Assembly: GCA_951406725.2 (NCBI GenBank)
Contig: OX597836.1
Coordinates: forward strand, 20,708,001-20,772,000
Direction: 5' to 3'
Origin: Octopus vulgaris
Lineage: Eukaryota
Length of the DNA: 64,000 nucleotides
The notes under the pieces were generated by a model. That model was not told the origin of the DNA, searched no databases, and worked only from the letters and a program-made list of their open reading frames with translations. How positions within the stretch are numbered: position 1 is the stretch's first letter; each line of letters starts with the position of its first letter. The translations under genes were made by a program, and so were the position numbers. Positions 17,540 through 62,674 of the stretch are shown here, piece after piece.

Positions 17540-18073
17540 GGAGACACATGGGATAGAGAGTTACTGAAGAGGTCACAGGATGTGTGAAAAAAGATTTCCA
17601 GACAAAGGCTACTAAAATAAGAAGTACAGAATCCTGCTTATCATCCAGTGCCCCTTGTAGCAAATCTTTGTAAGCTCAACCTTAAAAAAGGTGTGGCTAC
17701 ATTGGTGTTAGAGAACATTTACAAATAATTGTATTAAATCAAGTATTTTAATATGCAAAATGAATTATTGTAAAAAGATTATATATTTTTACATTTATGA
17801 TTTTGTTTTGCATGATTCTTGATGTGAAATAGTGTGTTGAAAAAGATATTGTTATATTTGGGGATGGTTTTATTTTTGCCAATTAAACACACACACTACA
17901 TATTCATTCTTCACTTCAGTTTTATTATTATTCTTATTTTTTAGTGTGTCTTTTGTCACACATCCTGTGACCTCATCAATGACTCTCTATCTCACGTGTC
18001 TAATCTTGTTCTGCTTATTCCATATTGTTTTTCTGTCGGGTGTCTCTATTTGTTCATGTGTTTGCATCTGTAT

Positions 18074-18114
<41 letters not shown>

Positions 18115-18312
18115 CACGACAGAATGAACTAAACAACAGGATGAGACACATGGGATAGAGAGTTACTGAAGAGGTCACAGGGTGTGTGACAAAAGATTTC
18201 CAGACAAAGGCCACTAAAATAAGAATAACAATAAAGCTGAAGTGAAGACTAAGTATATATAATGCCTGTGGTGAACCGCTAAAAATAAGACCATCCTCAA
18301 ATATAACAGTAT
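17540..18312. mobile_element. Penelope-like remnant with direct and inverted copies of a hammerhead-like unit
   Basis: Direct copies near 17541-17624 and 18143-18312, and an inverted copy at 17846-18012. The unit contains CTGAAGA-G-GTCACA...TGTGAC-AAA-AGATTT-C. Confidence 0.55.
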
Positions 18313-18938
18313 TATATATTTATCCAGATTATTAATAAGTTTGTTTTGTGGGGATTAAAACTTTTTCTTTGCACCAGTCATAATTATTATCCTTCAGTTA
18401 GGAGAAAAAGATTAACAAGTTTTTTCCTGCATATCAACAATTCTGATATAAAGTTTATAACAAAAGCATTTATAGATAGTTTTTATAGACTTAACGAAAC
18501 CAAAGGGAAAATTTTATAATAAAAACAACGAATCTTGCCAAATTTTGTAAAATTTCTATTGAAGACAACAAATCGAGGGGGGAAAAAAATTAAATAGGAA
18601 AACTGAGTTATTTCCCTTAGACTGTAAACAGGATGCTAAATCAATGCTGAGATAGTTAAAAGGAGCAATTCAAACTTGTGATTCCTTTCAAGGTAGATAA
18701 AATATGATAGTAGGCGTCGTTGCTGTAATTTTAATCTCAGATGAGCTCACATAATCAGTTTTCACTTTGCCCTTCTTTCTCAGACATAAACAAGGATGCG
18801 CGCGCGCACACACAGACACACAAGCACACACACATGGATGTGTGGTTAAGAAGGTCACTTTACAACCACATGGTTTCAGGTTCAGTTCCACTGCATGGTA
18901 CCTTGGGGAAGCATCTTCTATTGTAATCAAAGGATACC

Positions 18939-19166
18939 TATTTCTTTACTACCCACAAGGGGCTAAACACAGAGGAGACAAACAAGGACAGACAAACGGA
19001 TTAAGTCGATTATACTGACCCAGTGCCTAACTGGTACTTAATTTATCGACCCCGAAAGGATGAAAGGCAAAGTCGACCTCGGCGGAATTTGAACTCAGAA
19101 CGTAACAGCAGACGAAATACCGCAAAGCATTTCACCCGGTGTGCTAATGTTTCTGCCAGCTCGCCA
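18939..19166 (-). mobile_element. SINE family 2 (about 230 bp)
   Basis: tRNA-like head GGCGAGCTGGCAGAA...GAGTTCAAATTCC, central GGTCGACTTTGCCTTTCATCCTTTCGGGGTCGATAAA, and tail ...GTAGTAAAGAAATA. Confidence 0.85.
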
Positions 19167-19610
19167 GAGGATACCAACACCTTCCAAGCCAATCTGGCAG
19201 CTGGAAACTGAGTGGAAGCTTGTCACACACAAACACACACATATTTATGGTGGGGTGGATGATCTTTGTGATTGTCTTCCCACTGTTTGTTAACCAGTGA
19301 TGGTTTGTTTGCATTACTGTAAATAAGTAGTTTGATAAAAGAGACCGATAGAATAAGAACCAGACATAAAAGATAAATACCAGGGTCAATTTGACTGACC
19401 AAGCTCTTCAAGGCAGTGTCCCACCATCGCTAAAATCCAATGATTTGTTTTGGTCATTGTCTTGCACCCATGTGCTCACACACACATATTTACCTCAAGT
19501 CACTCTCTTGCTTCTACTAAATATCAATATAAATATCTATACACTCTTCTTTTGAGTGTCATTTTTCCTGTTTGCATCACCATACCTCTGTGTGTGTGTG
19601 TGTAGATATA

Positions 19611-20400
19611 CAGGGTATGATGGGTAAGTTGTCGCCATTTTATATTTTTAATTTCACGCATGTGTATTGTTGATTTTTGATTTTGTTGACAACAAAGTAT
19701 AGTAGGGTCAGTCGGGCACCATCTGTGATAAAAAACATCCCCATGATGCAATTCACTCTGCCAGAAATTTGGAGATGATATGCTGCACTGCTTGGCTTTC
19801 ACGCTGGAAGTTCCAATATGAACATTTCAGTGTATTTGGGTGTCAATCTGAGGACATGTACCGAGAGTGATAAAGATCAAACATCCAGTCAACATCATGG
19901 TGTTTCGAGTGATCACTAGGGCAATGTTATGCTTTCATTCATCTTCCCATACGGCCTCAGTTTCAACACAGAGGCCCTACATCAAATGCCTGGAGGAAGT
20001 AGTGCTGCCCTGGATCAAGAGTTTGGCTGCTGTAAGACCCTATGTCTGACAACAGGACTCTGCACCATGCCACACAAGCAGGAGAACCCAGTCATGGCTG
20101 TCAGACAATTTCTGTGACCACATCACTCCTAACATCTGGCCACCTAATTCCCCAGACTGCAACCCCCTTGATTATTGTGTGGGGTGCAGTTGAGTGAGAG
20201 ACCAACAAAACTCCTTGTAACACCAAAGATGAACTGCAGGTAAGGATTATGGCAGCATTCACCAAGTTAAACAAGGAGACCGTCCTGAAGGGTTGCAGAA
20301 GATTCCAAAGTCGTCTGGAATCTGCTGTAACTCTTGGTTGAAGCCAATTGCGATTTTATTGAATAAATTTACTCCTTAGTATTTCAATGATATTTTTTTG
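19611..20400 (+). mobile_element. Tc1/mariner superfamily DD37D (maT-type) transposon fossil, internally deleted
   Basis: TA-CAGGGTATG 5' end and an HTH-like N-terminus from 19743. Catalytic region QQDSAPCHTSRRTQSWLSDNFCDHITPNIWPPNSPDCNPLDY has 37 residues between the last two Asp. Contains stops and frameshifts. Confidence 0.88.
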
Positions 20401-20535
20401 CAAAGATGCCAATTTTGAAAATTGTGCTCATGGAGAGTTGTCACTTCCCTATAAACTATGCCATCGGAATGAGTTTGTCAACATTTTTACCTAAATAAAA
20501 CAAAAAAGTGTTTGTCCTTCAATTGTGTCTGTCTG

Positions 20536-20572
<37 letters not shown>

Positions 20573-20934
20573 CACACAGATATACACCACATACGTGTAT
20601 GTACTCAATATTTCCACAACATTTGGAAAATCAATTATCAAGAGCCCTCATGATTGCTCAATGTTTGACCTGCTATAAATAGCTCCCAAATTTTCCACAA
20701 ATCACAACTATCTTAAAGTCAAGGAAGAGTATAGCTAGGACTATATTGGTTAATGTAGTCCTAGATACATATAATGTTTGTGAAACAAGAAAACAAAATA
20801 AAGGAAAAAACAGAGAAACGATCATGGCTTGATTGTCTTTCATCAATATGAGTATATGAGTTTCTTCCTGATTAGGCCTGACCTGGGGTTAAATAACAAC
20901 AACAACAATAGCAACAATAACAAAACAGATCTTT

Positions 20935-21277
20935 TATCTTTTATATGTTTTGGTTATTATACTGTGGCCATTTTAGAGTACCGCCTTGAAGAACTTTTAG
21001 CCGAGTGTACTCCAGTACTCTCTTTTAATTTTTTAAGCCTGGTACTTATTCTATCAGTCTCTTTTGTCAAACTGCTAAGTTACAGGGATGTAAACACACC
21101 AACACCAGTTGTCAAACACACACACACATTGGGCTTCTTTCAGTTTCCATCGGCTACTCACAAGGCTTTGCCTGGTCGGAAGCTACAGTAGGAGACACTT
21201 GCCCAAGATGCCATGTAGTGGGACTGAACCCAGAACCATGTGGTTGGGAAGCAAGCTTCTTACCACACAGCCACACC
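20935..21277 (-). mobile_element. SINE family 1, older copy
   Basis: Diverged homology to family 1. Confidence 0.7.
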
Positions 21278-21843
21278 TAGAAAATATTTCCATATTTCAG
21301 AATGGTTAATTGTATTTTTTCTTAGAATAAAATAGAGATAATCTAAATAAATACACACACACATACATACACACAAACACACACATAAACACACAGGCAT
21401 CAAACAATATAGAGACAAAAAAATTACAAGAAAACAAATAAAAAGGTTTAGAAAATCCTCTGATCTGATCGATTGGTGAAAATTAATCTATAATTATAAA
21501 TGTATGTGTGTGTGAGAGTGTCAAGTTCACAAACCAGCTCCAGTGTTACATAACATATGTAAATGCAGTGATCTTACACACACACACACAGAGCTGGATA
21601 ATTAATTATTTAGGAAGCTTAGAGAAGTATTGAGCCACTCAGCTAAATAGTCAAGGTTTTATGGTGGAGCATCTTTTTTTCTTTCTTTTTCTCTCTCTTT
21701 TTTTTTTTTGGTAACCTTCAGTTAATAAGTTATGGAGAGGAAGTGGAAAAGTAGAGGAATAGATGGAGAGAGGGAGAGAGTTGAGAGAGTACAAGATACA
21801 CACATTGATACATACAAATATATATATATATATATATAATGTA

Positions 21844-21893
<50 letters not shown>

Positions 21894-22036
21894 TCTATAT
21901 GAGAATTATATATATATATATATTTACATATATCTATAAATATATATAAGAGAGAATTCACAAAAAACAAGAGACAAAGACAGATGGTGTAGATAACAAA
22001 CAGATGTATTAGTTTAACGCTTGGGAAGTGAAAAAG

Positions 22037-22074
22037 TCTTTAACATTTCGAGCCTTCACTCTTCCACAGAAAGG
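22037..22074 (-). ncRNA. Minimal type-I hammerhead-like motif (A6U core) in a Penelope-like remnant
   Basis: Minus strand CCTTT-CTGTGGA-A-GAGT-gaag-GCTC-GAA-ATGT-T-AAAGA, with the same spacing as 62637-62674. Confidence 0.55.
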
Positions 22075-22944
22075 AACACAGAAAAAAGCAAAGAGAAAAT
22101 GAAGAATGTGTAGTGGCTAGTGATCTGTCATGGCGAAGGTCGAAGAGAAGGGTCATATATATATATATATATATATATATATGGGGAGAGAGAGAGAGGA
22201 GGGAGAGGGAGAGATCTAGTTTTTGGCAAAATTAATTTCAAATTTTGGCATCAGGTTAGCAATTTCAAGTGAGGGAGTAAGTCAATTTCACCAACCTCCA
22301 TGCTCAACTGGTACTTATTTTATCGACTCTGAATGGATGACAGGCAAAGTCGACCTTGAAATTTGAACTCAGAAAGGGATGAAACGTTGCTGAAGAGGGA
22401 TGAAATATTGCTAAATATTTTGTCTGATAAGATAACAATTCTGCCAGTTCACTGCCTTTGTAAGTGAAATTATAAATAAAAACAGCCAAACATTTAATGA
22501 AGGAGCACTCAATATATTTAGGTGGCGTGTCAAATTTATTTTTACAAGAATAAGATGACAGTAACTTGAAAGTTTTTGATGACTGGGACTTCAAAGTCAC
22601 AGTTTTCCTGTTTCCTTGTAAAAAATACATGCCTGCATGTGCATGTGTGTGTGCATGTGTGTGTGTGTGTCAGAGACAGACAGACAGACAGACAGAAAGA
22701 GAGGTGCAAGGTACAGGCATGACCGAGTAGTTAAGAAACTGGCTTTGCAAGCCTGTGCTTGTATATCAGTATGTAGTAATATTGAGTGTTTATAGGATAC
22801 TCATCCACATAACTGATATTTCAATGAGAAATCAGATTGAGCAACTAGAATACTCAACACTGAAAATGGACACTGACAGAGGATCTACTAAAAATCATAG
22901 ATTTATGGGAGTATGCATGTGTGTGTGTATATGCACACGTATAT

Positions 22945-23310
22945 AGTGGCACTCCGTCGGTTATGATGATGAGTGTTCCAGTTGATCCAATCAACGGAAC
23001 AGCCTACTCGTGAAATTAGCATGCAAGTGGCTGAGCACTCCACAGACACGTGTACCCTTAACGTAGTTCTTGGGGAGATTAGGTGTGACACAGAGTGTGA
23101 CAAGGCTGGCTCCTTTGAAATACAGGTACAACAGAAACAGGAAGAAAGAGTGAGAAGTACAGCAGGGTTCACTACCACCCTCTGCCGGAGTCTTGTGAAC
23201 CTTTAGGTGTTTTCGCTCAATAACACTCACAATGCCCAATCTAGGAATCGAAACCGCAATTCTATGACTGCAAGTTCACTGCCCTTATCACTGGGCCATT
23301 GTGCCTCCAC
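22945..23310 (-). mobile_element. tRNA-derived SINE family 5a
   Basis: Head GGAGGCACAATGGCCCAGTGATAAGG...GGTTTCGATTCC. Shares its 5' part with 33628-33939 but has a different 3' half. Confidence 0.75.
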
Positions 23311-23495
23311 ACACACATATACACACAGACATCTATGAATGTAAATGTATGTTTGTACATATGTGTGCACATCTGTTTGTATATACATATATGTGTGTAT
23401 GTGTAGTCAATTCAAATAAACGAGTAAAAATTAATGGGCAACATGAGGACATGCACGAGAAATGTATTAGCTTGATGCTCGGTGAAAAGAGAGGA

Positions 23496-23528
23496 TTTGA
23501 CATTTTGAGCATAGCTCTTCGTCAGAAA
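23496..23528 (-). ncRNA. Minimal type-I hammerhead-like motif with canonical CUGACGA core and a G12A lesion
   Basis: Minus strand TTT-CTGACGA-A-GAGC-tat-GCTC-AAA-ATGT-C-AAA. The flank shares an ATGTATTAG motif with the 22037 and 62637 elements. Confidence 0.6.
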
Positions 23529-24039
23529 GGAGAAAGGGAAAAGTCGAAAGAAAGAAAAGAAATTGCCAACAGCACGTGTGTGTATGTGTACACACAAGCG
23601 CACACACACACAAAAGCACGCACACAAACACATACATTTAAATGGTTTTGTGTGTTGTGCATTTTGTGAATTGGTGGGTGAACAAACAGGGATATCATGG
23701 GGTTGAGGGGAGCCTGAATTGTGTCCTGACAGGTAAGGATATGAGAATCTTACCAGTGGTGTGGCCACGTAGCACATAGAAAAAAAAAACCCTCAGTACA
23801 TTCTAAAATGGTTAACAAGTGTGCAGAGACATTGTAAGACCCAGGAAGATCTTCAGACCATAATTGTGGAGGACGGGACAACTTGCAGTAGTGCTGATGC
23901 CACAAAAAATGAACCTAGTACATTTTGTAAAGTTGTTGGCATTAGGAAGGCTATCCAGTATTAGAAACCATGCAGACTGAAAATGGTCGAAAGGGGTGTG
24001 GTTCCCTGTCCACCCAGAACATGCCAATAGATGGGTGGC

Positions 24040-24458
24040 ACTTGTGCCAGTGAGCAGGTGACACGTAAAAAAAAAAAACCATTTGGGCGTGGTCGTTGCC
24101 AGTACTACCTGACTGGCCCTCGTGTCGGTGGCATGTAAAAGCACCCACTACACTCTCGGAGTGGTTGGCATTAGGAAGGGCATCCAGCTGTAGAAACTCT
24201 GCCAGATCAAGATTGGAGCCTGGCACAGCCATCTGGTTCGCCAGTCCTCAGTCAAATCGTCCAACCCATGCTAGCATGGAAAGCGGACGTTAAACACTCT
24301 CGGAGTGGTTGGCGTTAGGAAGGGCATCCAGCTGTAGAAACTCTACCAGATCAAGATTGGAGCCTGGTGCAGCCATCTGGTTCGCCAGTCCTCAGTCAAA
24401 ATCATCCAACCCATGCTAGCATAGAAAGCGGACGTTAAACGATGTTGATGATGATGAT
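24040..24458 (+). mobile_element. Family 3 retroposon end with a tandemly repeated 144-bp 3' segment
   Basis: Units at 24151-24294 and 24295-24439, followed by (GAT)n. Confidence 0.85.
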
Positions 24459-24653
24459 ATATATGTTCATAATTATAGAACCCAATTTAAGTAGAGCCTG
24501 ATGAGGGTGAGCAAGATAAAACTTTGAAGTCACTGTCTACTTTTATCACATAAAAGTTAATAAATACATATTCAACTAAAAAGTATTCAGCAATTCTTCA
24601 ATTTAATGTATGCAAATAACTTGACATAAAAACAAACATACAAACATTAATAT

Positions 24654-24716
<63 letters not shown>

Positions 24717-24745
24717 TATATATATACACACACACATATATATAT

Positions 24746-24790
<45 letters not shown>

Positions 24791-26830
24791 CATATATATA
24801 TATACATATATATATATTTATATATATTACACACACACTCATGTATATATATATGTTGTTAAATATGCTGTTTTTTTATGTCAAGTTATATGTCTATATA
24901 AACAATAAATCTGTATATATAATAAATGAGAGAATGTTAAAGAGAAGAAAAAGAGAAATGATGGAGATGAGAAATATAGGTCGAATGTTATGAAAAGGAA
25001 GAAAAAGGTGTGATAATGGAGTGAGTGGGTGGAAGGGAAGGAAAGGATAGAAAGGGGGAAGAGGTAGCAAGAGAGAGAGGTGGGACATGGGGGGGGGGTG
25101 AAGGACAAGTCAGAATCTCAGTCACAGATTGAACAATTGAATCAAAAATATGTGCAGGGAATAAATATTTCCCATATACCCATATACACATACATATATT
25201 TGGGCACACACATACACACGCATGCGTAAGCATCATGCTTATACAGACTCGCACAATAAAGAAAAGCGTACATAGAGTTAACACAGATAACAAATATTTC
25301 TTTGCACAGTTTATGGTATTTAATAAAGGATAAATTTAGATTAGTAAACACTGATAGAAAAAACTTTAAGCAATATATTTACGTATGCAGAATACCTACA
25401 TGAATGTCTATATATAACATACATGTGTATGTGTGAATGTATGTAAGTATGTATGTATAAACATACATACAGATATGTGTTTATATTTATACACGCAGAC
25501 GCATTTTTATGTGTATATACACATACATATATTCAGATTCACCATCAATTTTCCAGCTGCGTTGGTTCCATACCCATGTTGGATTGAAAGAAATCACAAA
25601 ACAGTAATTCTGAGAAAATTCCAAGAAGGTTGTTGTCAATGTTATTAATAACTTTTTTCAATACTAAACCTTAAAGCAACACACCTTTGTTCATACGAAA
25701 GAAGCACGTTGTAAAGTTGGAAACATTCTTCCAACCCTTCAACAATGACAATATGACCAAATCTAATGCCACCTGCTAACCCCCTAACAACCACTGGGCC
25801 TCCAGCAGTCCCCGTCTTGTAGTACAATAGTCAAAGACATATTTTCCCCTTTCCTCTTTCATGGAAACATTAGACAAAGTTATGAAAACAGACTGGATAG
25901 CCATGGCTGGAAGAGCTTTTTCTATCATAAGGCAGACTGGCAGCACTGGCAGAGAGTTGGGCAAGATTCCTTCGGCTTCTTGTATTCTAACAGTACCACC
26001 TACAATGGCGCAATGCCAAACTTTACTGGCCGGTGCTGACAGCCTTGCTCTTGTTTAGATATAGGAGACATATTCACAGATAAATGACAGTCTTCCATGG
26101 TAAAAAAAAAAAAATCTCGTCCAGGATTCCACATACATGTGCAGATGGATGGTCAACCTTGACCAACAGAACCCCTTAACGATTTACAGAGGTTCAAAAC
26201 GAATACCATCTGCCTCACCTTCACTATGTTCAAGAATTCCAGGTTTTTTGAGAAGTGTAAAACCACCTCTTAGCCAATATTGTTCCCAGGTCTATCCTGA
26301 TCCAGAGTAGTAGCACCTGTCAAGATCCCAGTTATGGGAAATTAGTATATTAGGGCTTGTATGACAATGCATGTGAAGACTGGATCCAGCAGACTCTACA
26401 GGAAAAAAAAAAAAAACTTCATGGTCCAGTGGAGATGAAGGTGGCTGCATCAAAACATTTTGGAGTGCAGAGAGCAAGATGAGGTCAAGTAAGACATCTT
26501 GGTCAGTCTCTGCCTCCATCTCCATCCCTGGTCATCTTGACCTGATCTTGTCATTGATTGAAGATGGTCATGGTTGATGATGCGCAACTCTTCTTCACTT
26601 TAAACAGAGTCACTGTGCAAGTCATCAGTCATCCTTAACGATGACTAGATGTTCCTCGTTGTTCTGATGAATGAACCTAACATGTGGGTTGTGGGCTTCT
26701 GGCAAAATCCCTAGACACCAGCACTCTTCTCTGACTATATCAAAATAAAACTTCAGTTTACATATATTTTCCAGCAATGCTTATTAACCATCAACATATT
26801 CACAGCACAAGTTTTGATGCAGCACGAAGT

Positions 26831-26881
26831 TTTGTCAGTGAACAGGTCGCGGTCTCAAAGTGATGAAAATATTTTGACAAA
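26831..26881 (+). ncRNA. Minimal type-I hammerhead-like motif, G3-C8 variant
   Basis: TTTGTCA-GTGAACA-G-GTCGC-ggtctcaaa-GTGAT-GAA-AATATT-T-TGACAAA: 7-bp stem I, stem II with G-U wobbles, and palindromic stem III. Confidence 0.65.
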
Positions 26882-27397
26882 TTAAATTCAAATGTTGAAG
26901 TGAATCTAACGGTTTTTGTGTGTTTCTTAAATGGCTTATAAACACCTTCCACGCTGCAATTGTTTTCGTTCCAGCACACGATCTCAGATCAGGTCACTCA
27001 CTATGCAAGTACATCTCCGTAATCCCTTATTAACCATGTCCTAATACTAATGCAAAGGCATGTGGATGTTGCATTCATGATTGCAAGACCATGGTATTGA
27101 TTTCTGGACTGGGCAGTAGCACTGTGTTCTTGGGCAAAACACTTCATTTTCATGTAGTTCCAGTCCACTCATCCGTAGAGGAGTAACCTTGCAACAAACT
27201 GACATCCTGTTCAAGGGCAATGATGTGACCTTGGTCACTGTATGCCACGAAAACTGGGTAACTGGTCCTATGAACCCCACAACTTAAGACAGTACTTAGT
27301 TACTTCTGCTCATGAGAACAGGAATGACGAGTACTCATACATCATATCTGATCTGACTGCCATTATTTTTATTGCCAGTGTATGTGTGTTGCATGTA

Positions 27398-27615
27398 TAC
27401 TCTTTACTCTTTTACTCTTTTACTTGTTTCAGTCATTTGACTGCGGCCATGCTGGAGCACCGCCTTTAGTCGAGCAAATCGACCCCGGGACTTATTCTTT
27501 GTAAGCCCAGTACTTATTCTATCGGTCTCTTTTGCCGAACCGCTAAGTGACGGGGACGTAAACACACCAGCATCGGTTGTCAAGCAATGCTAGGGGGACA
27601 AACACAGACACACAA

Positions 27616-27648
<33 letters not shown>

Positions 27649-27814
27649 CATATATACAACAGGCTTCTTTCAGTTTCCGTCTACCAAATCCACTCACAAA
27701 GCATTAGTCGGCCCGGGGCCATAGCAGAAGACACTTGCCCAAGATGTCACGCAGTGGGACTGAACCCGGAACCATGTGGTTGGTTAGCAAACTACTTACC
27801 ACACAGCCACTCCT
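27398..27814 (-). mobile_element. SINE family 1, subtype B (young)
   Basis: Diagnostic GCAATGCTAGGGGG, AAGCCCAGTAC, ATAGCAG and CCAAGATG segments shared with the 37178 and 51427 copies. Confidence 0.88.
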
Positions 27815-31926: not shown

Positions 31927-33049
31927 TTGAATGTATGTATAGGTGTACAGATGAAAGGAATAAAAGACTACAAATAGGAGAAATGCATTGAGAGATCTCA
32001 CACAAAGTATTACTATTGCTCAGCTAACGAGCTGCAGTGTAATGAGAAGAATAAACTATATATATATATATATATATATATAAGCAACAACAATACAAAA
32101 GAAAAAGCTAATAATAATCAGAGAACCTCTGCATATAATCTCTTATACACTTCATCCAGAATATTTGATAAGCCAAGGCATCTTGTAAGCTATAGATTCC
32201 AGACAGCAACTAAAACTTCACAGTAAACAGATTCATAAAAGTCAGGCAAGGGTGAAAGAGGTGATGGTGGATTGGCAGAAGTTTTAGAGCATCAGATGGA
32301 AATGCTTTATGGTATTCAGTGATAGTCTTTTTATGTTCTGAGCTCAAATCCAGCCTAAGGGAGTCAAATTTGACTTACTATATTCTGGCGTTTAATAACA
32401 TGAAATAAGTATCTAATATTATGGGGGATTAAATATTCCTGTAAAACGTTAGAAAAAACACTTTGCAGCCACAAGGATCCCAGTTTGAGCCCACTGAGTA
32501 GTCTCTTGGACAAGTTTCTCTTTTAGCTTCAGGTTGACAGTGTCTTGTAAGGGACACTGTACCTTGACCATACATCTCTCTTTCTGTCTTCTTCCAGATG
32601 GGCAAGCCATGTATCCAATGCTTCAGCAAGACACCTGCTCCTACCCCACTATCTAGTTTTTATCCCTCAATTCTATACCCCTACACAGCTGCGGGTGGGG
32701 GTCTTACTTTGTGGATATTTGATGACCTCACTGGTGCTGGTACAATGTAAAATGTAAAGTGATTGATGTGACTGTAAAGTGATTGATGTTAAGAAAGGCA
32801 TCTAGTAGTAAAAACCAGACCAAAGCAGACATTAGAACATGATGCAGTCCTCTGGATTATCTGTTCATATCAAACCATTCAATCCATACCAGCATGGAAA
32901 AGAGGAAGTGAAATAAGGATGATGATGATGATGTAAGTAAAATTAATATGATGATCAAGGACTGGAATGTCTTTGATCATGGATCTGTTTGATTGTGGTT
33001 GACACAGACCTTAACAACAATATCAATAAACGATAAAACAAAGTCTTAC

Positions 33050-33223
33050 CTCAAGGAGCTCATCCCCACTGATGAGTTGACCATTACAACCGACAGGACC
33101 AGCTGGAAGTATTGATCGAATAAAATGATGCGGTCGCATCTCTACACCATTCTCCACGTCTACGGTACCTTCTAAGCTGATACCAAGACCTCCTCCTTCA
33201 CGAAATTTAGATAGCTGAGCAAC
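33050..33223 (-). CDS. Patj: Patj/MPDZ-like multi-PDZ protein, internal exon B (N-terminal part of PDZ)
   Basis: 174 nt, phase 0-0, ttggcag| ... |gtaaga. Translates VAQLSKFREGGGLGISLEGTVDVENGVEMRPHHFIRSILPAGPVGCNGQLISGDELLE and joins exon C as GDELLE|VNG, the canonical PDZ motif. Confidence 0.95.
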
Positions 33224-39494: not shown

Positions 39495-40025
39495 GTTCAA
39501 AGGATTATTTACCTAATTTCAGTGGAATACATCCACTGGTTCGTGTGTTATATAGCTAGCTAGAGGCGATGGCCTCTTGGAGCTAATCAACGGCAGCTTC
39601 CGTCCTATATTTATGGACTGCCATATTAGCTTGGCGATAACTGTTAATATCCAGTATCGCTGCCGTAGTCTCCTTTAGAGAGACTTAGAAATAATAATAT
39701 TTCTATTTTTGAAAACCAGTGGATGTATTCAACTGAAATTCGGTAAATAATCCTTTGAACAGATGGTCAGCAGTGACACCTGCTGGGTCTGGCTACTCGG
39801 CATTGATAAAGGGCAAATACCCTGAAACATGTCTGCAGAGGCCTGACCAGCAAGGGGAAGCAGCTCACCTCCCCTGTTCGAAGGTTATAATGGTCACAGG
39901 TTTGCGTGTCATATAGCTAGCTAGAAGCAATGGCCTCTTGGAGCTAATCAACAGCAGTTTTCATCCTATATTTATGGACTGCCATGTTAGCTTGGTGATA
40001 TCTATTAATGATAATAATAATAATA
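39495..40025 (+). mobile_element. Penelope-like remnant (tandem terminal repeat, inverted 5' piece and hammerhead)
   Basis: Direct repeat 39542-39648 / 39905-40009, inverted repeat 39495-39541 / 39714-39760, and a hammerhead at 39781-39852. A related unit is near 51315-51410. Confidence 0.7.
39781..39852 (+). ncRNA. Type-I hammerhead-like motif, U3-A8 variant with extended bulged stem I
   Basis: CTCGGCA-TTGATAA-AGGG-caaata-CCCT-GAA-ACATGT-C-TGCAGAG. Stem I extends TGCTGG.TC.GGC / GCC.GACCAGCA past a TA bulge, and the cleavage triplet is GUC. Confidence 0.7.
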
Positions 40026-42830: not shown

Positions 42831-43695
42831 TAGATAAGTTATAAAGGTACTGTAAATGTTCATGGCCACTGCTGTTTCCCTCCTAATTAAATGGTAAAGA
42901 ATAATGAACACACACATTTATGGTCAAGTAGAACCTAAGGTTGTTAAAATGTTTATTAATATAGGGAGTATTAATAAATATAACTTGAAATAAAAACATA
43001 GTGAGGAAAAAAACAAAAGTGAAAGCAAATCTGTATTACTAATATTATGTAAATTACTTTGGCAGGTGTGGGGGACAACTCTCTATGTGTTTTGATATTA
43101 TTGCAATCTCATCAATAAAGCATAGACTTCACTATTTTACTTTTGCACTATGGATTTTGCAGACTCTTAAAAATTGGTGAGATGGAAGCCTTTTGAATTG
43201 TTATGAGTCAATACTTGCAGGGAGAAAGACACAATTTGTAAAAAGCTCTTAATGATATGTGTAAAATTTGATGTCCTTTCATACAAGTATGGAATATATG
43301 TATAAGTCTTTAATTTGTCTTTTCATGCAATAATGGCAATATAATATATTAGTTGCAAATTTTGGCACAAGGACATCAATTTCTGGGGAGGGATAAGCTG
43401 ATTACAGTGATACCAAAGTGCAACTGGTACTTATTTTATTGACCCCAAAAGGATGAAAGGCAGTCGACCTCACTGGAATTTGAACACAGAATGCAAAGAC
43501 AGATGAAAAGCTGTTCAGCCTTTACCTTGTGTGGTAATGGATACTGCTTTGTGTATACGCGTGTGTATGTTGTATATGTATAGTGTGTGTATTGTGCCTG
43601 TGTGTGTGAGTATATGGTGAAAGTGCTTGCAATGTATGTGAAATAGGGACAGGTAGAGCTTTTTGAGAAGCACTAAAGGATGTAAGTGTACTTAC

Positions 43696-43775
43696 CACAA
43701 CTTCAAAATCATTGCCAACAATTGGTTCCCAGGTTGCTTTAATTGCCGCCTCCACTCCAGGCAACAAATCACCAC
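43696..43775 (-). CDS. Patj: Patj/MPDZ-like multi-PDZ protein, internal exon A (pre-PDZ segment)
   Basis: 80 nt, phase 1-0, tgtttgtttag| ... |gtaagt. Translates GDLLPGVEAAIKATWEPIVGNDFEVV, which continues into VAQLSKF and resembles the 'W..I.G..YEIVVA..SKF' segment of MPDZ/Patj. Confidence 0.88.
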
Positions 43776-45083: not shown

Positions 45084-45368
45084 ATATGTGTGTGTGTGTG
45101 TGTGTGTGTGAGAGAAAGGGAAGTGAGGGAGAGAGAAATAGCTACACAGATAAGTAGATAGACTGATACACACACACACACCACATATGTGTGTGTGTGA
45201 GAGAGAAAGGGAAGTGAGGGAGAGAGAAATAGCTACACAGATAAGTAGATAGACTGATACACACACACACACCACATATGTGTGTGTGTGAGAGAGAAAG
45301 GGAAGTGAGGGAGAGAGAAATAGCTACACAGATAAGTAGATAGACTGATACACACACACACACACCAC

Positions 45369-45375
<7 letters not shown>
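45084..45375. repeat. Tandem triplication of a unit of about 91 bp
   Basis: Three copies of (TG)n-AGAGAAAGGGAAGTGAGGGAGAGAGAAATAGCTACACAGATAAGTAGATAGACTGATA-(CA)n-CCAC, identical outside the microsatellites. Confidence 0.95.
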
Positions 45376-45419
<44 letters not shown>

Positions 45420-50220: not shown

Positions 50221-50932
50221 TGTATGCATGTATGTGTGTGTGTGTGTGTGTGCATGTACATGTAACTAACCAAACCAAAGAGTGGTTTTGTCACAACAGT
50301 AAATACTATGAGAGGTGATGAGGCTGTTAACATAAAGGTCAACTCCCAGTTGACCTTTTATGCCAACAGTCTTGATCTAATTTCTTTATTATATGAGATT
50401 GTCCACCTTTTTTTTTTCACAACCTCAAGCTATGTCATATTTTCTTTCAGAAAAAAAATCTAGTGCAGTATTTCTTTTAAAATATATTAAAAGGAAAAGG
50501 GCAAGATGTGTAACGCTACCTGTGATTCACCCCAGAATGAGTCAATTGATTTTATGAATAGCTTGCTAATTACATTTATTTTATTTATTTATCCTTATTT
50601 ATTCGTTTTCTTCTTTTATTTAAGACAGTTTTTTTTCCCCTGAAGTTTTAATAAATTTATTTGGCATTTTTCAGTCAAGAAAGAAAAAAAGAGAAATTCT
50701 TAAAATTCAAGCTAGTTCGAAAATCATTAACAAAAGTTACATGTTTTGCTTCTAGTGAAGGTTATGTAGGTTACTATGGAAACTGATATCATACACTAAA
50801 CATAGATGGTACTATACACACACATATATACATGGTTCAAATATACAGAAAACATACACACTTTGGTAACTAATATCTTACACTAAACATAGATGGTATC
50901 ATACACACACACACACATATATATGATGTTTT

Positions 50933-50975
50933 CAAAGCGATGAATAGCTTTTTGCAGAAACCATGGTTCGCTTTG
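50933..50975 (+). ncRNA. Minimal type-I hammerhead-like motif, A3-U8 variant
   Basis: CAAAGCG-ATGAATA-GC-ttttt-GC-A-GAA-ACCATGGT-T-CGCTTTG: perfect 7-bp stem I and 8-nt palindromic stem III, but weak stem II. Confidence 0.6.
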
Positions 50976-51175
50976 TTTTCTTACATTATTATCATCTTAT
51001 AATCATCTCATAATAATGACTCTTATGACTAGCTCAGTCCATCTAATTGTATATATTTGTCGTTACCTGTCATAAAAAGCCTTTTTTTATTTGCAATGTG
51101 CATTTTCGTTGATTTTTTATATTTTACCCTTACATTTCCACGTGTATTTTACGTTTTCTTTTTGTAACATGTTTC

Positions 51176-51218
<43 letters not shown>

Positions 51219-54459: not shown

Positions 54460-54679
54460 CCCTTTAGCATTCAAACTGGCCATATCCGGCCAAAATATTT
54501 AACCTGTTTTATATTGAAACTGACCAGATCTCGCCTCTCACCTCAGCCCTACCATGTCATTCTAAAACTAAAAAATCACATCACTGAAATCTCTAAACTA
54601 AAAGATAATGCATGATTAATTCAAAACAATATAAACAAACAAATATCACATTTGACAGAATAATCTGAACACAAAAGGG
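54460..54679 (+). mobile_element. piggyBac-type MITE P2 (220 bp) inside a decayed family-1 SINE
   Basis: TTAA flanks at 54456-54459 and 54680-54683, and CCCTTTAGCATTCA / TGAACACAAAAGGG ends. Confidence 0.8.
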
Positions 54680-55505
54680 TTAAATCAGCAAAAAAGACCA
54701 ACAGAATTAGTACCAAATTAAAAACAGTAAATACTGGTACAGATTTGTTTCACTAAACTTTTTCAATGACAGAAACAATAAATAGATAAAAGATCTAAAA
54801 AGAAAAACAGAAAGAAAAATGTTAAATGAATTGAATAAGTCTTTTTAGCAGTTTCTTTTCCAATATGTACATTGTGAGTGGATTTGGAAAACAGAAACTG
54901 AGAGAAGCCTGTCGTATATATATATATATATATATGTATATATTAATGTGTGCCTGTGTTCACTGATTCTTGATCTCTCACCAAATATTTGGTGGCCTTA
55001 CTAGCTGATGTCAGAAAAACCAGCACAATAAAAAAACTTAGCTGTGTGTGGGTCAAGGAAGGCATAGAGGCCTTTAGTATTTAGGTATGGCACATGAAGA
55101 GGAATAAGATCGTTCAACACAGAAACTTGCAGTAGCAGCAGATTAAAGACTCTTAATGGATATCTGACCTGTCAGAGCAGTGAAACTGGCATTTTCCTGT
55201 CTTAAAAACAACAGGTGCACGTTGGATAGTGTAATCTTAGATACCATCTGAAACGACACACATTTAAGTGCCATTGATGATAAGCTAGGCCAATCAGGGT
55301 TGACCAGGAGGTAAACAGTCAATCAGCAATAACAAATACTTCTCTAAACCAAACTTATTCTCTTTATTGAATAAACCAAGAATTCTCTAGCAAATATTCC
55401 AGCAATCGATTTGGCTTGGGAATTGAATACAAAGTTCTGCTGAATCAAGAAAAATTGCCTACTTTATATATACACACACACTCATATACACCTAAGTATA
55501 TATAG

Positions 55506-55537
<32 letters not shown>

Positions 55538-55663
55538 CCATACATAAATACAGAAACAACAAACTTCGAAAAGTGGGCCTTAAAACGATAACGAGGATAT
55601 AATTTCAATAACTTTGGTTTTGGCCATTATTAGCCCAGACCATGTCTAACTTAATACATACAA

Positions 55664-55714
<51 letters not shown>

Positions 55715-57011
55715 TCTATATACAAAGACAAACTTCTATATTTATAATATACACAGACACACAATCAATATACATATACACATATATATACACACATGTC
55801 TATATATGATATCACATACACACATCTATATACATATATGTATGGAATTGAGTAACGTAATGTAATTCGTTGTGTATGTATGTATATAATTTCTGAAATA
55901 TTCTTAGTCAAAATACATTTTCGGGATGGGTGAATGAATGGATGAGTGTGTGGGCGAAGATCCCTCTCCCTACCCACTTCCTTACTTTTCCTTTTTTTTA
56001 TTTATTTCTTTTTTTTTTTGATTTTTCAAAATCTTTCAAAAAATTTGCATTAAAAAATACAGAATAAGTTAAAAATGAAAGACAAAAAGGAAATAAAAAA
56101 ATTCATCCATTTCTTAAAAATTTGCAAACATAAATCAATAAATTATTTGCTGGCTGGTGACTAAAAATGCTGTAGGCTGTGAGAAACAACTACATTATGA
56201 CTATTGACTAAACAAGCAGAAGAGATCACACAGAATATTATAGATATTCCAAGAGGAAACTTTCCTCTGATGAGGCTTAGAGTAAATATGGCTTTTGTGG
56301 TATTTTTTGCTTTGTTTGTACAGGCTTTTGTTACACTATTTTTGCTCATTTTCTTCTCTCTCTTTTTAAAAAAATTCTTTCTTCCTTTCTAACTCTCTGT
56401 CTCTTTTCTGAAATGGTTTTTACATGAGGGGGGAAAAAAAAATGGGTGACTTGTATCCTACTAGCCTCACTGAAAATAACCAAAGTAGATATCAGCCATC
56501 ACAGTTAATCATTTCATAAGTACTACCTTCTGCTATATTTGTAAGTACTATCCTCATTTATGCACACACACATAAAAGGGGGGGGAAAAAAAGACCCTTC
56601 CTTTAACAACCCCCATAATACTTAAGCTTATGAAAGAAATAAAAAGAAAAAAAGGAGAAAAAAGATTCTATTAGGAAGATCAATACATGCACAAGTTTTA
56701 GGAAATGCACAGAAAGTAATTTTATTTTATTCAGGTGTTGTATATATAGGATAGCCAAAAGAATAGAAAATTTAAAATGAGGGTATTGTTATTGTTGTTT
56801 AGCTAAAATCTGAGCCTGATTGAGCAAGCATATATTCAAAAGTGTTCCAGTCATGCTCATCCTGTGTTTTTATATATCAGAGATTATATTGTCTAATGTA
56901 TACTTAAGTAGGGTGTAAATTGAGGGAGATTTAGCAGCAATTTCTAACAATCAACGCAACTACATAGAGGCTCTCCTCACTGGATCCATTTTGTATCATG
57001 GTCTTTGGTCT

Positions 57012-57235
57012 GAACTGGCAGAATCGTTAGCATGCCAGGTGAAATGCTTAGCGGTATTTCGTCTGCCGTTACATTCTGAGTTCAAATTCCGCCGAGGTCG
57101 ACTTAGCCTTTCATCCTTTCGGGTTCGATAAATTAAGTACCAGTTACACACTGGGGTCGATATAATCGACTTAATCCATCTGTCTGTCCTTGTTTGTCTC
57201 CTCTATGTTTAGCCCATTGTGGGCAATAAAGAAAT
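57012..57235 (+). mobile_element. SINE family 2
   Basis: Homology to 36213-36438. Confidence 0.85.
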
Positions 57236-57876
57236 ATTTATATATTTTAGCACTTGAGCTATTGCAGTTATTAAGTATTCCACTTGAGTTGGGACAGGAG
57301 ACTGCCATGCCTGCATATGTGAATGTTGTTGTTGTTATGGTATCAGATTCATCAGAAATTAAATGAGCAGCAATATTCTAGAAAAGTACCAATTCAGAGC
57401 AAATTGGTGGGATTGCAATCCAACACCAGAAGAAGCAAGACCAATAAGGGTCTCTTGTCACTGGATCTTTTTTCAGTGAAGTTGAAGCTTAGCTCTGGCA
57501 TGGATCAAGGCCATTTGGTATCTGAAATGCTGCCAGGTACTCATGGCATTCTACCAGTTGGTTGGTAGAACATCAAATCTTGCACTCTATAATGAGTTGA
57601 GGGTGTGAATGATGATTGCATAGGAACTATTCATGACAACAGAAGTTAATATGGGAGATCACGACCAGAGACTTCAAGGTCAGTATTTTTGAGCTGTATT
57701 CTTCACCTGGTTGTCGTGGTGGTGGTACAAGTGGGGTGGTGGCTTAGCTTGTTTTGGATTAACTTCACAGGCGAAGCCATGTTGGAGATATCAGCAATAT
57801 AACTTGTTCAAATGTGCCCAGGTTCACAAAACAGTTTTGACAGGCCTTTTCCTTCACTCATGTCCTTGATCACCTT

Positions 57877-58195
57877 AGCTACTATCTATGTAGCTATCTA
57901 TTCACTCAGTCGAAGTTGACTCTCGGTCACTCGTTGGATCAGTGTCCTCCAGTCAGTTCTATCCTGGGCCGCTTCTTTCAGATTGGCTATGTCCACTCCG
58001 GTATCACTCTTGATGGTGTCAAGCCAGTGGGTTCTTGGTCGGCCTCTTCCTCTCTTGCCACTGACCATTCCGAGCATGATGTCCTTCTCCAGGGATTTTC
58101 TCCGCATAATATGACCGAAATATGCCAATCTATGCTTGGTGATCCTAGCTTCTAGCGACATTTTCAGCCTGATCTGCTTAAGAACTTCTCTATTA
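57877..58195 (-). mobile_element. RTE-clade LINE 3' end
   Basis: Reads SLEARITKHRLAYFGHIMRRKSLEKDIMLGMVSGKRGRGRPRTHWLDTIKSD...AAQDRTDWR, the typical RTE ORF C-terminus, followed by a short-repeat tail. Confidence 0.9.
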
Positions 58196-58873
58196 GCTAT
58201 TAGGCTGCTGTCAAATTGAACTGCTAGTCACTCTGTAGAGTCAGCAGAAAGTAGCCCCTCTTTATTCCATGCATTCTCTACACTCAGCAGCCACTCATAA
58301 TAACACTTCCATGCCACTTTCTAGTCTTTCATATTGATGGTGAGTATGCCTTCATCATTCTGCATAAACTTCTCACCAATGACATCTCAGTTCACCTCAT
58401 GCCTCCGATCCTTATGCTGCAAGACATGTGCAAATTTTTCTCTCCTTCACCTTTGGTCAAACATACCTGTTGCCATGCTGCTCTCCAAACCATTTGGTAA
58501 CACTACCACACAACACACACTAGATGTTTTATGGCATGTAATTTAGCAGTTAACCATTTATTGGCTCATTTTCTTTTTTTTTTCTTTCTTTTTGTTTTGC
58601 ATCATATATTATCTGTTACTTTGACATCATGGTTGAGTTGGTGGTTTAAGTTATATAAAGAACAAAATACTTCATTCCAGCTATAAAATGTCTACTCAGA
58701 AAATTCAGATAAATTTATAAATCCCCCTTTTATCTACCCTGGCAATGCTTCACCCCATCTGCTCCCATAATACCTTCACCTATACCTTCACTTTCCTGTT
58801 GACCTATGCATGCATGCATAAAGAAACAACTAGAAAATAGTGAATAATAAACATACACACATTCATATAAATA

Positions 58874-58910
<37 letters not shown>

Positions 58911-59477
58911 GAAAGGCAAAATATGAATAAATTACTGTGAAATACAATAATAACATCAAAGGAGAGAAATACTAAAGGTAGTTTCATAAACAACTTGAAA
59001 GAAATGAAAATATTAATTCACACACACACTTCCCATATATGTATGTTTATATCTATGTTCTAAGATGCTTACAGTATGTGTGTATATGTGCGTGCATGCG
59101 TGCATGCATAAAAGAGACACAAATAGATAATGAGGGACACTATATGTATATGCATGTGTTTTTCAATACATATGTATAAAAAAAGAGATAATGATAAATG
59201 GTGAAAGAGATATCAGGCTCTGGGATAAGTACATTTTATTTGTAAACATCTGTTTCACATAGGACAGATATATGGAAAACTGAAATACACACACACACAC
59301 ATGCAAATGTCATTTTTCAAGAAGCTCAAAAGACTTATTTTCAAACTTCTCAACAAACTTCAAACAAGCTAAACATACACATACAACACAACACACACAT
59401 TGTTTTCGTATGGAGACAAGCATATATGTGTGGTAAAAAAAGTTTGCTTTGCATCCATAGGTTCAAACTCACTTTAA

Positions 59478-59697
59478 CCCTTTCGTTACTGTATTTATTT
59501 TGAGATGCTCATTGTTTCTTTCAATTACTTCAAATATAACAAAGAATTTAGTAAAATAACTTGGTTATCATTAAGCTAGTGTTAGGAACATAAAGTGTGA
59601 CTAAGGTTTGGTGGAAGATTTTAATTCAAAACTTATGGAAACAAAACATTTGTACTCGGAGCCAGAGCCGGTTTCAGCTGGGTTGGTAACGAAAGGG
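59478..59697 (+). mobile_element. piggyBac-type MITE P1 (220 bp)
   Basis: Perfect 12-bp TIR CCCTTTCGTTAC / GTAACGAAAGGG with TTAA TSD. Confidence 0.9.
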
Positions 59698-61427
59698 TTA
59701 AACAATTGTCTTCTACCATGCGATACGAAATGAGAACCAGCACATTCAAACTGAAAATGTTCCACTGGTATTTATGCCAAGATGAATTATCTCCATCTGG
59801 AAAGCCCTCCTTTCCCATGTTCTTCCTGCAACATTAGATAGTTGTTTTAGATAGCCCTGGGTCGAGTCCCTTTCACCAGCAAAACCAATGGCACATATTT
59901 TAATTCTCAACACAATCATACACATTCAACTCAAATAATTACAACACATGGTATCTATTTAATCTATCAAGATTCCATGAAGAGTATTTACCATGATTTT
60001 TGGCTACTCTGTAGATGTCAACCCCAAATGCTAGTCATAAATCTTTAAATACAACAAAGTATTAATTTCATTTCACTTTTATTCCAATTACATCCACGCT
60101 CCCGACCTGTTTGTTGGTCTGTCCATCAATGTTCTGTAGAATCTGTCACTAACATAAATATCGGTAGTTCCAGTTCTTTGGAGCTACAAGATCTAATGCG
60201 AATATAAACAGATTGGATATTTGTTTCCCTGTGATTTCGTCAACAGATATAGACACCTCTGATGATGAAACCTCAATAAGGGTTGGAAAGTGATTATGGT
60301 AGGTCACTTTTTTTATCTATAGAGAAATAGGTAAATTCAATATTTGTATGTCACCTATGTATGTTTATATGTGTGTGGGGGGTGTATATGTGTACACACA
60401 CACACACACAGAGGCAAGTTTCATACCACACAGCCACACACACCTGTACAAACATACATAGATTTATCAGTCTTGGTTCCCAGCATTTGATTAATTAGTC
60501 AAATGTCTAAGTCAACTTCTTAATTTCATCACCATCAACAACAACAACAACATTCTTATTATTATTATTATCATTATTAATATTCTTATTTCTGTGTTTA
60601 GCACTAACTAGAGACTTAATGAAAGAGAATGGCTGACCACCAATTCTGAATCTTAATTGGCATCGGTGCTAGAACTGTACAAAAGAAAAATCTGTATTTC
60701 CAGGCAGCCAACCAACCTGATAGCATCATACGGTTTTATATCATCACTCATCTTCCTCCCACATCATTCTTTCTATTCTTATCCCTCTACCCCACTCCGT
60801 TACCTTTCTTCCTTGTTAGGCGGAATTTTCACAAAGTGATCAAAATTAACTCCAACTTAGACTCTCCCCTTCCAACACTGTGCTTCTCCACGAGACCAAC
60901 CCCCCAACAACCTTGCCCTGCCCCACTCACTAACCTGCTGTTCGCTCTATTTTACGACTTCATTCATTACTAAGCTAATCAACTGATCTCTAAAATGGCT
61001 TAATAATAATTGCTCATTCTCATTGTTGTTAGTCACTGCTGGAAAGTAAACCAATCAGTAGAATCTGTTCTATTTAGCAATTCTTATTTTTAAATCTAAT
61101 TTCATTTCATTTGTCTTGTTCCTATTATTGTTGCTACTATTTTGTTATTTTTCTTCTTCCACATCCCTAACCAATAACAGAAAAAAAAAGAAGCAAAAAA
61201 AAGAAGAATGGATAAAAAAAGACACATTTACCTTCTATGATTCCGGAAGATTTAAGAACTATTGAATTACTTTTATCTTCATGTATTTCTTTATTTAGTT
61301 AGCTACACTCCACCCCTGCTGTTCCATATCTATTGCCCTACATCCGACTGCTAGCAATACCTGTGGTTTGTAGTCAATATCTCAAAAAGTTGTGATAGCA
61401 GAGAAGTAGCAACATGTAGAGCATTTC

Positions 61428-61812
61428 TGGCTGTGTGGTAAGTAGCTTGTTTACCAACCACATGGTTCCGGGTTCAGTCCCACTGCGTGGCACCTTGGGC
61501 AAGTGTCTTCTACTATAGCCTCGAGCCGACCAAAGCCTTGTGAGTGGATTTGGTAGACGGAAACTGAAAGAAGCCTGTCGTATATATGTATATATATGTG
61601 TGTGCGTGTATGTTTGTATGTCTGTGTTTGTCCCCCTAGCATTGCTTGACAACCGATGCTGGTGTGTTTATGTCCCCATCACTTAGTGGTTCGGCAAAAG
61701 AGACCGATAGAATAAGTACTGGGCTTACAAAGAATAAGTCCCGGGGTCGAGTTGCTCGATTAAAGGCAGTGCTCCAGCATGGCCGCAGTCAAAATGACTG
61801 AAACAAGTAAAA
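61428..61812 (+). mobile_element. SINE family 1, A/B mosaic
   Basis: The 5' half carries subtype-A diagnostics and the 3' half carries subtype-B diagnostics. Confidence 0.85.
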
Positions 61813-62155
61813 AGAAAAAGAAAAGAAAGAATCTACTTCCATCCATCTAGATTCTGAGTTCAAGTGACACTAGAGTAAACAGATAAAAATACTTTGTGGT
61901 ATTTTCCTTGGTTACATCCCTGTATGTTCTCAGCCTCCCCCCACCCCCGTTTATCTCTCTCTGCTCTGAGATGGACAAAACAAGCATCAGCTGGTGAAAT
62001 AATTGTTAGCCAAGTACAAAGGACTTTTAGGATTGTCACTTGACAAGCTAGAAATGACAGCCACTAAATTTCCCACAAATTTAACTCATCACAGGCAGAA
62101 ATCCATTAACTAAAAATCTGCTTGGTCAGAGCTAACTTGGGGCAAAACAATAATA

Positions 62156-62372
62156 CTGGGTGGCCCAAAAGTAGGTTTACAGTTGTCACATCGGCACTTT
62201 AAAATTTCTCTTAAAACATTTCATTACATTTAAATTTCTATCTTATAAACCGAAAAGGGAGCTTGACAAAATTAGCTAAATTAGCATTTCATATTTTTTG
62301 TAATTAAGATCTAAACTGTTAATATATGAATGCAAAAGAGATAGTTGAATAACTGTAAACCTACTTTTGGGC
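62156..62372. mobile_element. Tc1/mariner-type MITE
   Basis: TA-CTGGGTGG start and a perfect 22-bp inverted repeat GCCCAAAAGTAGGTTTACAGTT (62163-62184 / 62351-62372). Confidence 0.8.
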
Positions 62373-62466
62373 AACTGTCTTCTACTACTTTGGGCTGACC
62401 AAAGACTTGTAAGTGGATTTGGTAGATGGAAACTGAAAGAAGCTAATCTTTGTTAGCCCCCCCCCC

Positions 62467-62502
<36 letters not shown>

Positions 62503-62636
62503 CGCTTGACAACCGGCAAAAGAGATTGATAGAATAAATAACGGGAAGGTTTACGAAAATAAACAAAAGACGAAGGCAGGTGGAGTACAAACAAACAATG
62601 TATTAGTATGGCACTCAGGAATAGAAATAAAACAAG

Positions 62637-62674
62637 TCTTTTACGTTTCGAGCCTACGCTCTTCGACAGAAAGA
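62637..62674 (-). ncRNA. Minimal type-I hammerhead-like motif (A6U core) in a Penelope-like insert within a family-1 SINE
   Basis: Minus strand TCTTT-CTGTCGA-A-GAGC-gtag-GCTC-GAA-ACGT-A-AAAGA. All stems are perfect and the cleavage triplet is GUA. Confidence 0.68.

Follow-up and report, generated by a model that had tools for sequence, protein, structure and literature searches.

The window analyzed here is a stretch of 64,000 nucleotides from Octopus vulgaris (GCA_951406725.2, contig OX597836.1, positions 20,708,001 to 20,772,000, forward strand), which contains seven hammerhead ribozyme motifs in or near the introns of a gene for a multi-PDZ protein (MPDZ/Patj-like). Five repeat families account for all seven motifs. 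The families are multicopy, the hammerheads of two of them lie behind open reading frames (ORFs), and covariation is seen at the pair between core positions 3 and 8 and in stems I and II; stem III is palindromic. All seven motifs had been claimed in a preliminary description of this DNA, and all are present. On the plus strand, position 3 falls where it had been reported, at 18166 (C3-G8), 26838 (G3-C8), 39803 (U3-A8), and 50940 (A3-U8). On the minus strand, position 3 falls at 22069, 23525, and 62669, all C3-G8; the positions first given for these motifs (22037, 23496, and 62637) are their low ends.

The three motifs with other pairs are on the plus strand. The family F element of about 210 nucleotides (nt) at 26812 to 27022 carries a hammerhead at 26831 to 26881, with G3 (26838) and C8 (26843), an additional G after A9, a 5-bp stem II, the stem III palindrome AAUAUU, and a predicted cut after U17 (26874). 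The retrozyme-type element of family E at 39538 to 40008 holds about 1.3 copies of a 361-nt monomer, and its hammerhead at 39800 to 39836 has U3 (39803) and A8 (39808), stem III ACAUGU, and a predicted cut after C17 (39833). At 50927 to 51178, adjoining (TA)n, lies the 3' end that remains of a 5'-truncated Neptune-like Penelope element. Its hammerhead at 50933 to 50975 has A3 (50940) and U8 (50945), stem III ACCAUGGU, and a predicted cut after U17 (50968); stem II is only 2 bp long, and there is an additional base before G12.

The C3-G8 motifs belong to families A and B. A young family B copy, the 3' end of a GIY-YIG Penelope-like element, lies at 62544 to 62722 (minus strand), and its hammerhead at 62637 to 62674 has C3 (62669) paired with G8, an additional A after A9, and a predicted cut after A17 (62642). 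An older copy at 21962 to 22135 (minus strand) has a C3-G8 hammerhead at 22038 to 22073, with a predicted cut after 22042. Both copies have U at position 6, and a family B relative at 23496 to 23528 (minus strand, C3 at 23525) has A6. Family A is represented by the copy at 18111 to 18308 (plus strand, C3-G8 core at 18166) and by two additional decayed copies, one at 17535 to 17623 (plus strand, C3-G8 core at 17564) and an inverted partner at 17850 to 18034 (minus strand, position 3 at 17979, U3 with G8). The GAA-containing core attributed to every motif is present at 22069, 26838, 39803, 50940, and 62669 and is missing from 18166 and 23525. In these two and in the copies at 17564 and 17979, A replaces G12, a loss that looks like CpG decay.

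The host gene, which lies outside the elements, extends over 1155 to 43773 on the minus strand, with four detected exons (43675 to 43773, 33047 to 33223, 3509 to 3895, and 1155 to 1418). These exons bracket the motifs from 17564 through 39803. An upstream exon encoding the N-terminal ~550 residues was not found in the window or the next 60 kb, so the motifs at 50940 and 62669 can be considered intronic by inference only. The motifs with U-A, G-C, and A-U pairs run antisense to the gene, and the family B copies share its strand. Elsewhere in the window, a look-alike of the C terminus of an RTE-type LINE ORF was recognized by eye at 57898 to 58227 (minus strand), with no Pfam match, and a 91-nt unit of microsatellite pieces is present in three tandem copies, 98% alike, at 45097 to 45383.

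Repeat families carrying the motifs

DNA searches with each motif gave 1,906 first-look candidates for 26838, 548 for 50940, 1,818 for 39803, 1,304 for 62669, and 1,868 for 18166. Forty candidates were scored for each, which biases the alignments toward the best matches, and some aligned rows derive from overlapping loci. The families were multicopy, and their cores did not revert to the canonical form. The alignment of the 50940 family showed A3 in 31 of 32 rows and U8 in all 32, family E showed U3-A8 in 34 of 34, family F showed G3-C8 in at least 90% of 42, and family B showed C3 in 32 of 33 and G8 in 33 of 33. The majorities of these four families keep G12-A13-A14, A15.1-U16.1, and H17, and the wobbles of the window motif at 26838 are repaired in the family F majority to give the 5-bp stem II. 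Most aligned family A copies lack G12, and this family has a wobble-containing stem III palindrome and a weak stem I. Stems I, II, and palindromic III are arranged around the core in type-I order, and the majority cores keep the stems together with the unusual pairs. Because the canonical letters C3, A6, and G8 are not kept (G3-C8, A3-U8, and U3-A8 families, and U6 in family B), the families are variants, not canonical members, of minimal type-I hammerheads. The flanks had been described as unrelated; this is incorrect for 22069, 23525, and 62669, which form a single family, and for 18166 and 26838, which have one common scaffold.

A descriptor that left positions 3, 6, 7, and 8 free, tuned after the motifs had been seen, gave five window matches at a score of at least 10, all Watson-Crick at 3-8 and none non-Watson-Crick. 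These exceed the matches in 200 local dinucleotide shuffles, in which the mean was 0.135 Watson-Crick matches (maximum, 2) and 0.41 non-Watson-Crick matches. The 18166 motif fails this descriptor. Of the 187 rows from an Rfam scan of the window, the best 150 included no hammerhead and were nearly all microsatellite noise.

The families differ in age. The median pairwise identity is 0.87 for family A, which is old, and 0.88 to 0.94 for the A3-U8 families versus 0.98 to 0.99 for the U3-A8 family and family B. Family ends lie at fixed 3' points, often at (TA)n; the elements are 5'-truncated, occur as partial tandems or as inverted copies, show two 3' ends (tail), and have microsatellites as targets. 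An inverted partner is frequent and is present in 28 of 51 family F loci; families A and F both have a Penelope-like insertion structure. The 5' end of family F is fixed about 25 nt before the core and is complementary over 6 nt to the element's own 3' end. Head-to-head copies of this family (window 26812 to 27022; loci L007 and L235) often join at the fixed 5' end, which is unexpected for a 5'-truncating element. Family F was also considered as a circularly permuted monomer, but in the loci viewed a 5' start never came after a 3' end. A look-up of RNA records for the family F stretch listed none. At one locus (L221, minus strand, near 1500), the C-terminal fragment of an RTE-like LINE, recognized by eye, is immediately followed by a family F relative with A3.C8.

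Family E consists of a noncoding monomer with a 361-nt period, in partial tandem and with a type-I hammerhead. In a related organism, RNA reads from both strands, mostly less than 95% alike, jump back 362 nt (56, 49, and 28 reads). These are head-to-tail joints, and genomic tandems would yield the same joint. A compensatory change in the stem III palindrome was present in every covering read (36/36, 19/19, and 21/21).

Linkage to Penelope-like open reading frames

Loci of the A3-U8 family contain reverse transcriptase (RT) thumb and GIY-YIG sequence upstream of the hammerhead on the same strand. In the clade of the 50940 motif, RT is followed by a C-terminal GIY-YIG domain in a single upstream ORF (Pfam RVT_1 and GIY-YIG). 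In a search with the A3-U8-family ORF, 117 of 25,199 candidates were scored, and in each of the subfamilies examined the hammerhead occupied an equivalent site behind the ORF. The distance was about 150 to 300 nt behind RT and GIY-YIG ORFs, on the same strand, and was larger in family B, in which 12 of 30 loci have the hammerhead 270 to 660 nt behind a piece of a GIY-YIG-like ORF (motif scan). This piece was identified by eye and by a weak tblastn match (E value, 5e-4).

A young U3-A8 family, whose tandem and inverted copies are 99% alike, has an 811-amino-acid (aa) open ORF with an RVT_1 match (E value, 2.9e-7) and a GIY-YIG match below the cut-off (E value, 0.068). An A3-U8 copy with a 635-aa stop-free frame containing RVT_1 and GIY-YIG is 63% identical to this ORF, and both have a C-X4-C-X2-C linker. 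Neptune elements are defined by a CX2-5CxxC linker between RT and endonuclease (PMC8557442). Elements of the 50940 clade may therefore be called Neptune-like, a label resting on the linker. The ORFs of the 50940 and 62669 families and the retrozyme-type monomer of 39803 bear out the earlier proposal of several Penelope or retrozyme families. The linked GIY-YIG/RT ORFs sought for them were found for the 50940 and 62669 families, and none was found in the fetched loci of families A and F.

At locus L223, a family A copy has a Poseidon-like ORF upstream. This ORF was rejected as the partner of family A, because the 29 other loci with it have no family A sequence and many have a different, canonical hammerhead. 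In the Poseidon-like family (L306 to L334), a C3-G8 hammerhead lies about 280 to 470 nt behind the query; canonical cores thus coexist in this genome with the variants.

Covariation at the 3-8 pair

Four patterns that specified no letter at positions 3 and 8 were matched against the genome, and the first 100 listed rows of each were tallied by hand. Exact matches numbered 130 for one pattern (0 in the control), 6,402 for the scaffold common to 18166 and 26838 (0 in the control), 4,068 for the U-A/A-U scaffold (6 in the control), and 25,660 for the family B scaffold (0 in the control). In this order, 93, 94, 93, and 95 of the 100 listed rows had Watson-Crick 3-8 pairs. The 130-match pattern gave A-U 81, G-C 12, G-U 1, A.C 4, C.C 1, and U.C 1; the 6,402-match scaffold gave G-C 82, C-G 12, G-U 1, and 5 mismatched; the 4,068-match scaffold gave U-A 63, A-U 30, U-G 4, and 3 mismatched; and the family B scaffold gave C-G 95, U-G 3, and C.A 2. 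In the family B rows, position 5 was G in 100 of 100, position 6 was U in 77, A in 20, and C in 3, and all four letters occurred at position 7. Noncanonical cores make up most listed rows of the 4,068-, 6,402-, and 25,660-match scaffolds, in line with the earlier claim that CUGANGA searches would miss these families; such searches miss a large share of hammerheads.

The U6 form of family B (62637 to 62674 and 22038 to 22073 in the window) includes a very young subfamily with a median pairwise identity of 0.986, and its loop II is 4 nt long, compared with 3 nt in most A6 rows. An alternative register that gives family B an A6 was rejected: both stem I and stem II are disrupted by it, and in the U6 register position 7 is free to vary.

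For 26 copies hand-picked to span the subfamilies of the clade with the 4,068-match scaffold, the pairs were A-U in 14, U-A in 7, G-C in 4, and other in 1, and 3-8 was paired in 25. These copies showed two-sided changes at all five stem I pairs and at one stem II pair, and their covariation score was 0.68 versus at most 0.22 for slid controls. The shuffle test on this set is inflated by related rows; the slid controls never reach the observed score. Pairing of position 3 with position 17 to extend stem I was rejected, because the same 26 rows showed no 3-17 covariation.

An ORF tree was built from 46 fragments, after 17 of 63 had been dropped (3 for a wrong or doubtful motif call and 14 as duplicates or near-identical U-A sequences) and two labels corrected. 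It contains a U-A clade (99/92) and A-U clades (98/96 and 100/100), with the C-G family B outside; three G-C rows group together (91/83) inside the 100/100 A-U clade. The four 3-8 states require three changes on this tree. The branch uniting the A-U clades has support of only 94/79, so that either U-A or A-U may have come first. With the A/F scaffold included, there were about four independent double changes in total. The 3-8 pair is a family trait that covaries within homologous elements, which is stronger evidence for the covariation claimed earlier than the comparison of window motifs from which the claim had been made.

Several further variants were observed. In the inverted pair at locus L254 (1493 to 1531, minus strand, and 1613 to 1651, plus strand), the two copies are near-identical apart from U3-A8 in one and A3-U8 in the other. 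A 17-row A3-U8 subclade (100/94; L142 to L149, L152, L166, and L170) has an additional base beside G12, which may be U, G, A, or C and recalls an insertion in the GAAA strand that Perreault et al. 2011 (PMC3088659) describe as active. Small groups with a U3-G8 wobble occur beside the U3-A8 and C3-G8 families (4,068-match rows on C1 at 21474846, 34574029, and 34574431, and 25,660-match rows), and A3.C8 copies were found beside A-U and G-C copies. The U3-G8 and A3.C8 forms are possible intermediates of the 3-8 swaps.

Interpretation and comparison with known systems

We consider, with a probability of about 0.8, that these motifs represent minimal type-I hammerhead folds at the ends of several Penelope-like and retrozyme families, that their 3-8 pair was swapped by double substitutions within related lineages and is likely maintained by selection, and that they likely cut the element's RNA as dimers or with the aid of the element's protein. 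In transcripts of tandem or inverted elements, two motifs would meet by way of the stem III palindrome. Cleavage would then trim or process a precursor or multimer RNA and, in family E, release monomers of about 361 nt; the copies in the window would be passive insertions. Cofolding favored the dimer by 3.0 to 10.4 kcal/mol in seven of seven copies and paired the stem III palindrome between strands in five of seven, so that dimer formation through stem III is predicted. Minimal hammerheads of metazoans show no activity as monomers and weak activity as dimers (PMC4209133), and the PAc ribozyme needs protein, with partial rescue by C3G/G8C (PMC11167929). The 3-8 pair is part of the active structure (PMC3884650). 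Because this pair would form in the active fold only, its covariation would reflect selection on the active conformation in master elements.

Several points weigh against this interpretation. The tallies amount to about four independent double changes, not hundreds, because copies inherit the pair from few masters, and Fisher p-values overstate the support for covariation; A.C and A.A rows also occur in the ORF tree. The window A3-U8 subfamily has the 2-bp stem II, the additional base by G12, and a U17 able to pair with A3, and no A3-U8 family is very young, all being older than the U3-A8 and U6 families. Families A and F stand apart from any linked ORF in the loci fetched. In pairwise mutagenesis of one type III hammerhead, the G-C swap alone rescued activity (PMC9901934), and hammerhead mutants of Anolis PAc had no effect on insertion in vitro, with no reads ending at the site (PMC11167929). 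In addition, no read pile-ups were seen at the predicted cut site of family E, at a depth too low to judge.

In an alternative that we regard as unlikely, the fold was selected as a signal that binds protein or guides folding in the Penelope ribonucleoprotein, and the forms with A3-U8 and a 2-bp stem II or with U6 cut little or never. The PAc hammerhead cleaves with protein only and is dispensable for insertion in vitro (PMC11167929), and metazoan minimal hammerheads cleave weakly (PMC4209133). U6 prevails among the listed rows of the most abundant family, a natural A6C variant is slow, and one A3-U8 subclade carries an insertion beside G12. However, G5 is kept throughout the listed family B rows although it had been left free, and the covariation falls on a tertiary pair of the active structure, which a pure binding signal does not obviously need.

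Less probable still is that the motifs are decaying relics hitchhiking on successful masters, with a Watson-Crick pattern made of few chance double changes and the picking of paired-looking families. The independent events are indeed few, the starting families were first chosen for their paired appearance, and 3 to 6 copies per 100 listed rows are mismatched. On the other hand, the G-C subfamily and the U-A family surfaced through ORF similarity and 3-8-blind patterns, and A3-U8 is retained among elements whose ORFs are about 60% identical to each other, with compensatory changes in stem I. Regulation of the host MPDZ-like pre-mRNA, for which the location in or near its introns and the strand of the family B copies might speak, is very improbable. 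Exact matches to just three of the scaffolds amount to about 0.8 per 64 kb (36,130 in 2.8 Gb), the motifs with U-A, G-C, and A-U pairs have the antisense orientation to the gene, decay has affected several copies, and a copy on its own requires a partner. For the first two of these reasons, the one-gene framing of the preliminary description is incidental.

Selection for the cutting fold is the interpretation that we favor. The one in vitro system of a Penelope-like element inserts without its hammerhead. A compensatory change at an active-fold pair in elements that later spread is evolutionary evidence that the fold matters. The paired swaps suggest that evolution keeps the cutting fold even in forms that were poorly tolerated when another hammerhead was mutated in the laboratory. 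What distinguishes the case from a routine Penelope hammerhead is that the pair covaries within a clade, that there is an A3-U8 lineage, and that the U6 core is abundant; natural test cases are offered by the intact, young U3-A8 element and by the U6 family, which is also young. More tentatively, and at somewhat less than even odds, the A3-U8 and U6 variants, which mutagenesis of free RNA marks as poor, may be active, probably because protein of the element chaperones the fold; the repeated compensatory swaps in one clade may be direct evidence from evolution that Penelope elements require the catalytic conformation to transpose in vivo; and these may be the first natural A3-U8, G3-C8, and U6 families.

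Work by Przybilski and Hammann from 2007 reportedly indicates that any Watson-Crick 3-8 pair can work, depending on context. A 2017 survey by Lünse, Weinberg, and Breaker is said, by its title, to describe small hammerhead variants of Penelope-like elements that cleave as dimers, and these core variants may already be listed there. In the literature covered, which does not include this largest survey, no natural G3-C8, A3-U8, or U6 (A6U) family was found, and the novelty of the three as natural family cores is provisional. U3-A8 in Penelope hammerheads had already been published, with about 1,300 matches in Schistosoma mansoni (PMC4209133), and in this respect the earlier description overstated the case.

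The present families resemble the minimal type-I hammerheads in metazoan Penelope-like pLTRs (PMC4209133, Cervera and De la Pena 2014) in helix order, a short or palindromic stem III, G10.1-C11.1, the additional base between positions 9 and 10.1, and the prevalence of solo truncated copies with inverted neighbors. The 56 representatives of that survey comprise 53 C-G, 2 U-A, and 1 U-G, all A6, and the survey descriptors required such cores; in contrast, G3-C8, A3-U8, and U6 are family states here, and three pairs occur in one ORF-defined clade. The natural core variants of Perreault et al. 2011 (PMC3088659) share U3-A8 covariation, a 2-bp stem II, and the GAAA-strand insertion, but section 8 of that paper names no natural G3-C8 or A3-U8 and gives A6C, not A6U. 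Family E resembles animal non-LTR retrozymes in being noncoding, in its length of about 361 nt within 170 to 400 nt, in its partial tandems, and in its type-I hammerhead (Cervera and de la Pena 2020, PMC7229834; Li et al., bioRxiv 10.64898/2026.07.22.740005); it differs from them by its U3-A8 core and is known here from sequence and read joints. Engineered G3-C8 partly rescues cleavage (PAc C3G/G8C, PMC11167929; PMC9901934). In the laboratory the 3-8 swaps were engineered, whereas here they are carried by elements that have spread to hundreds or thousands of sites.

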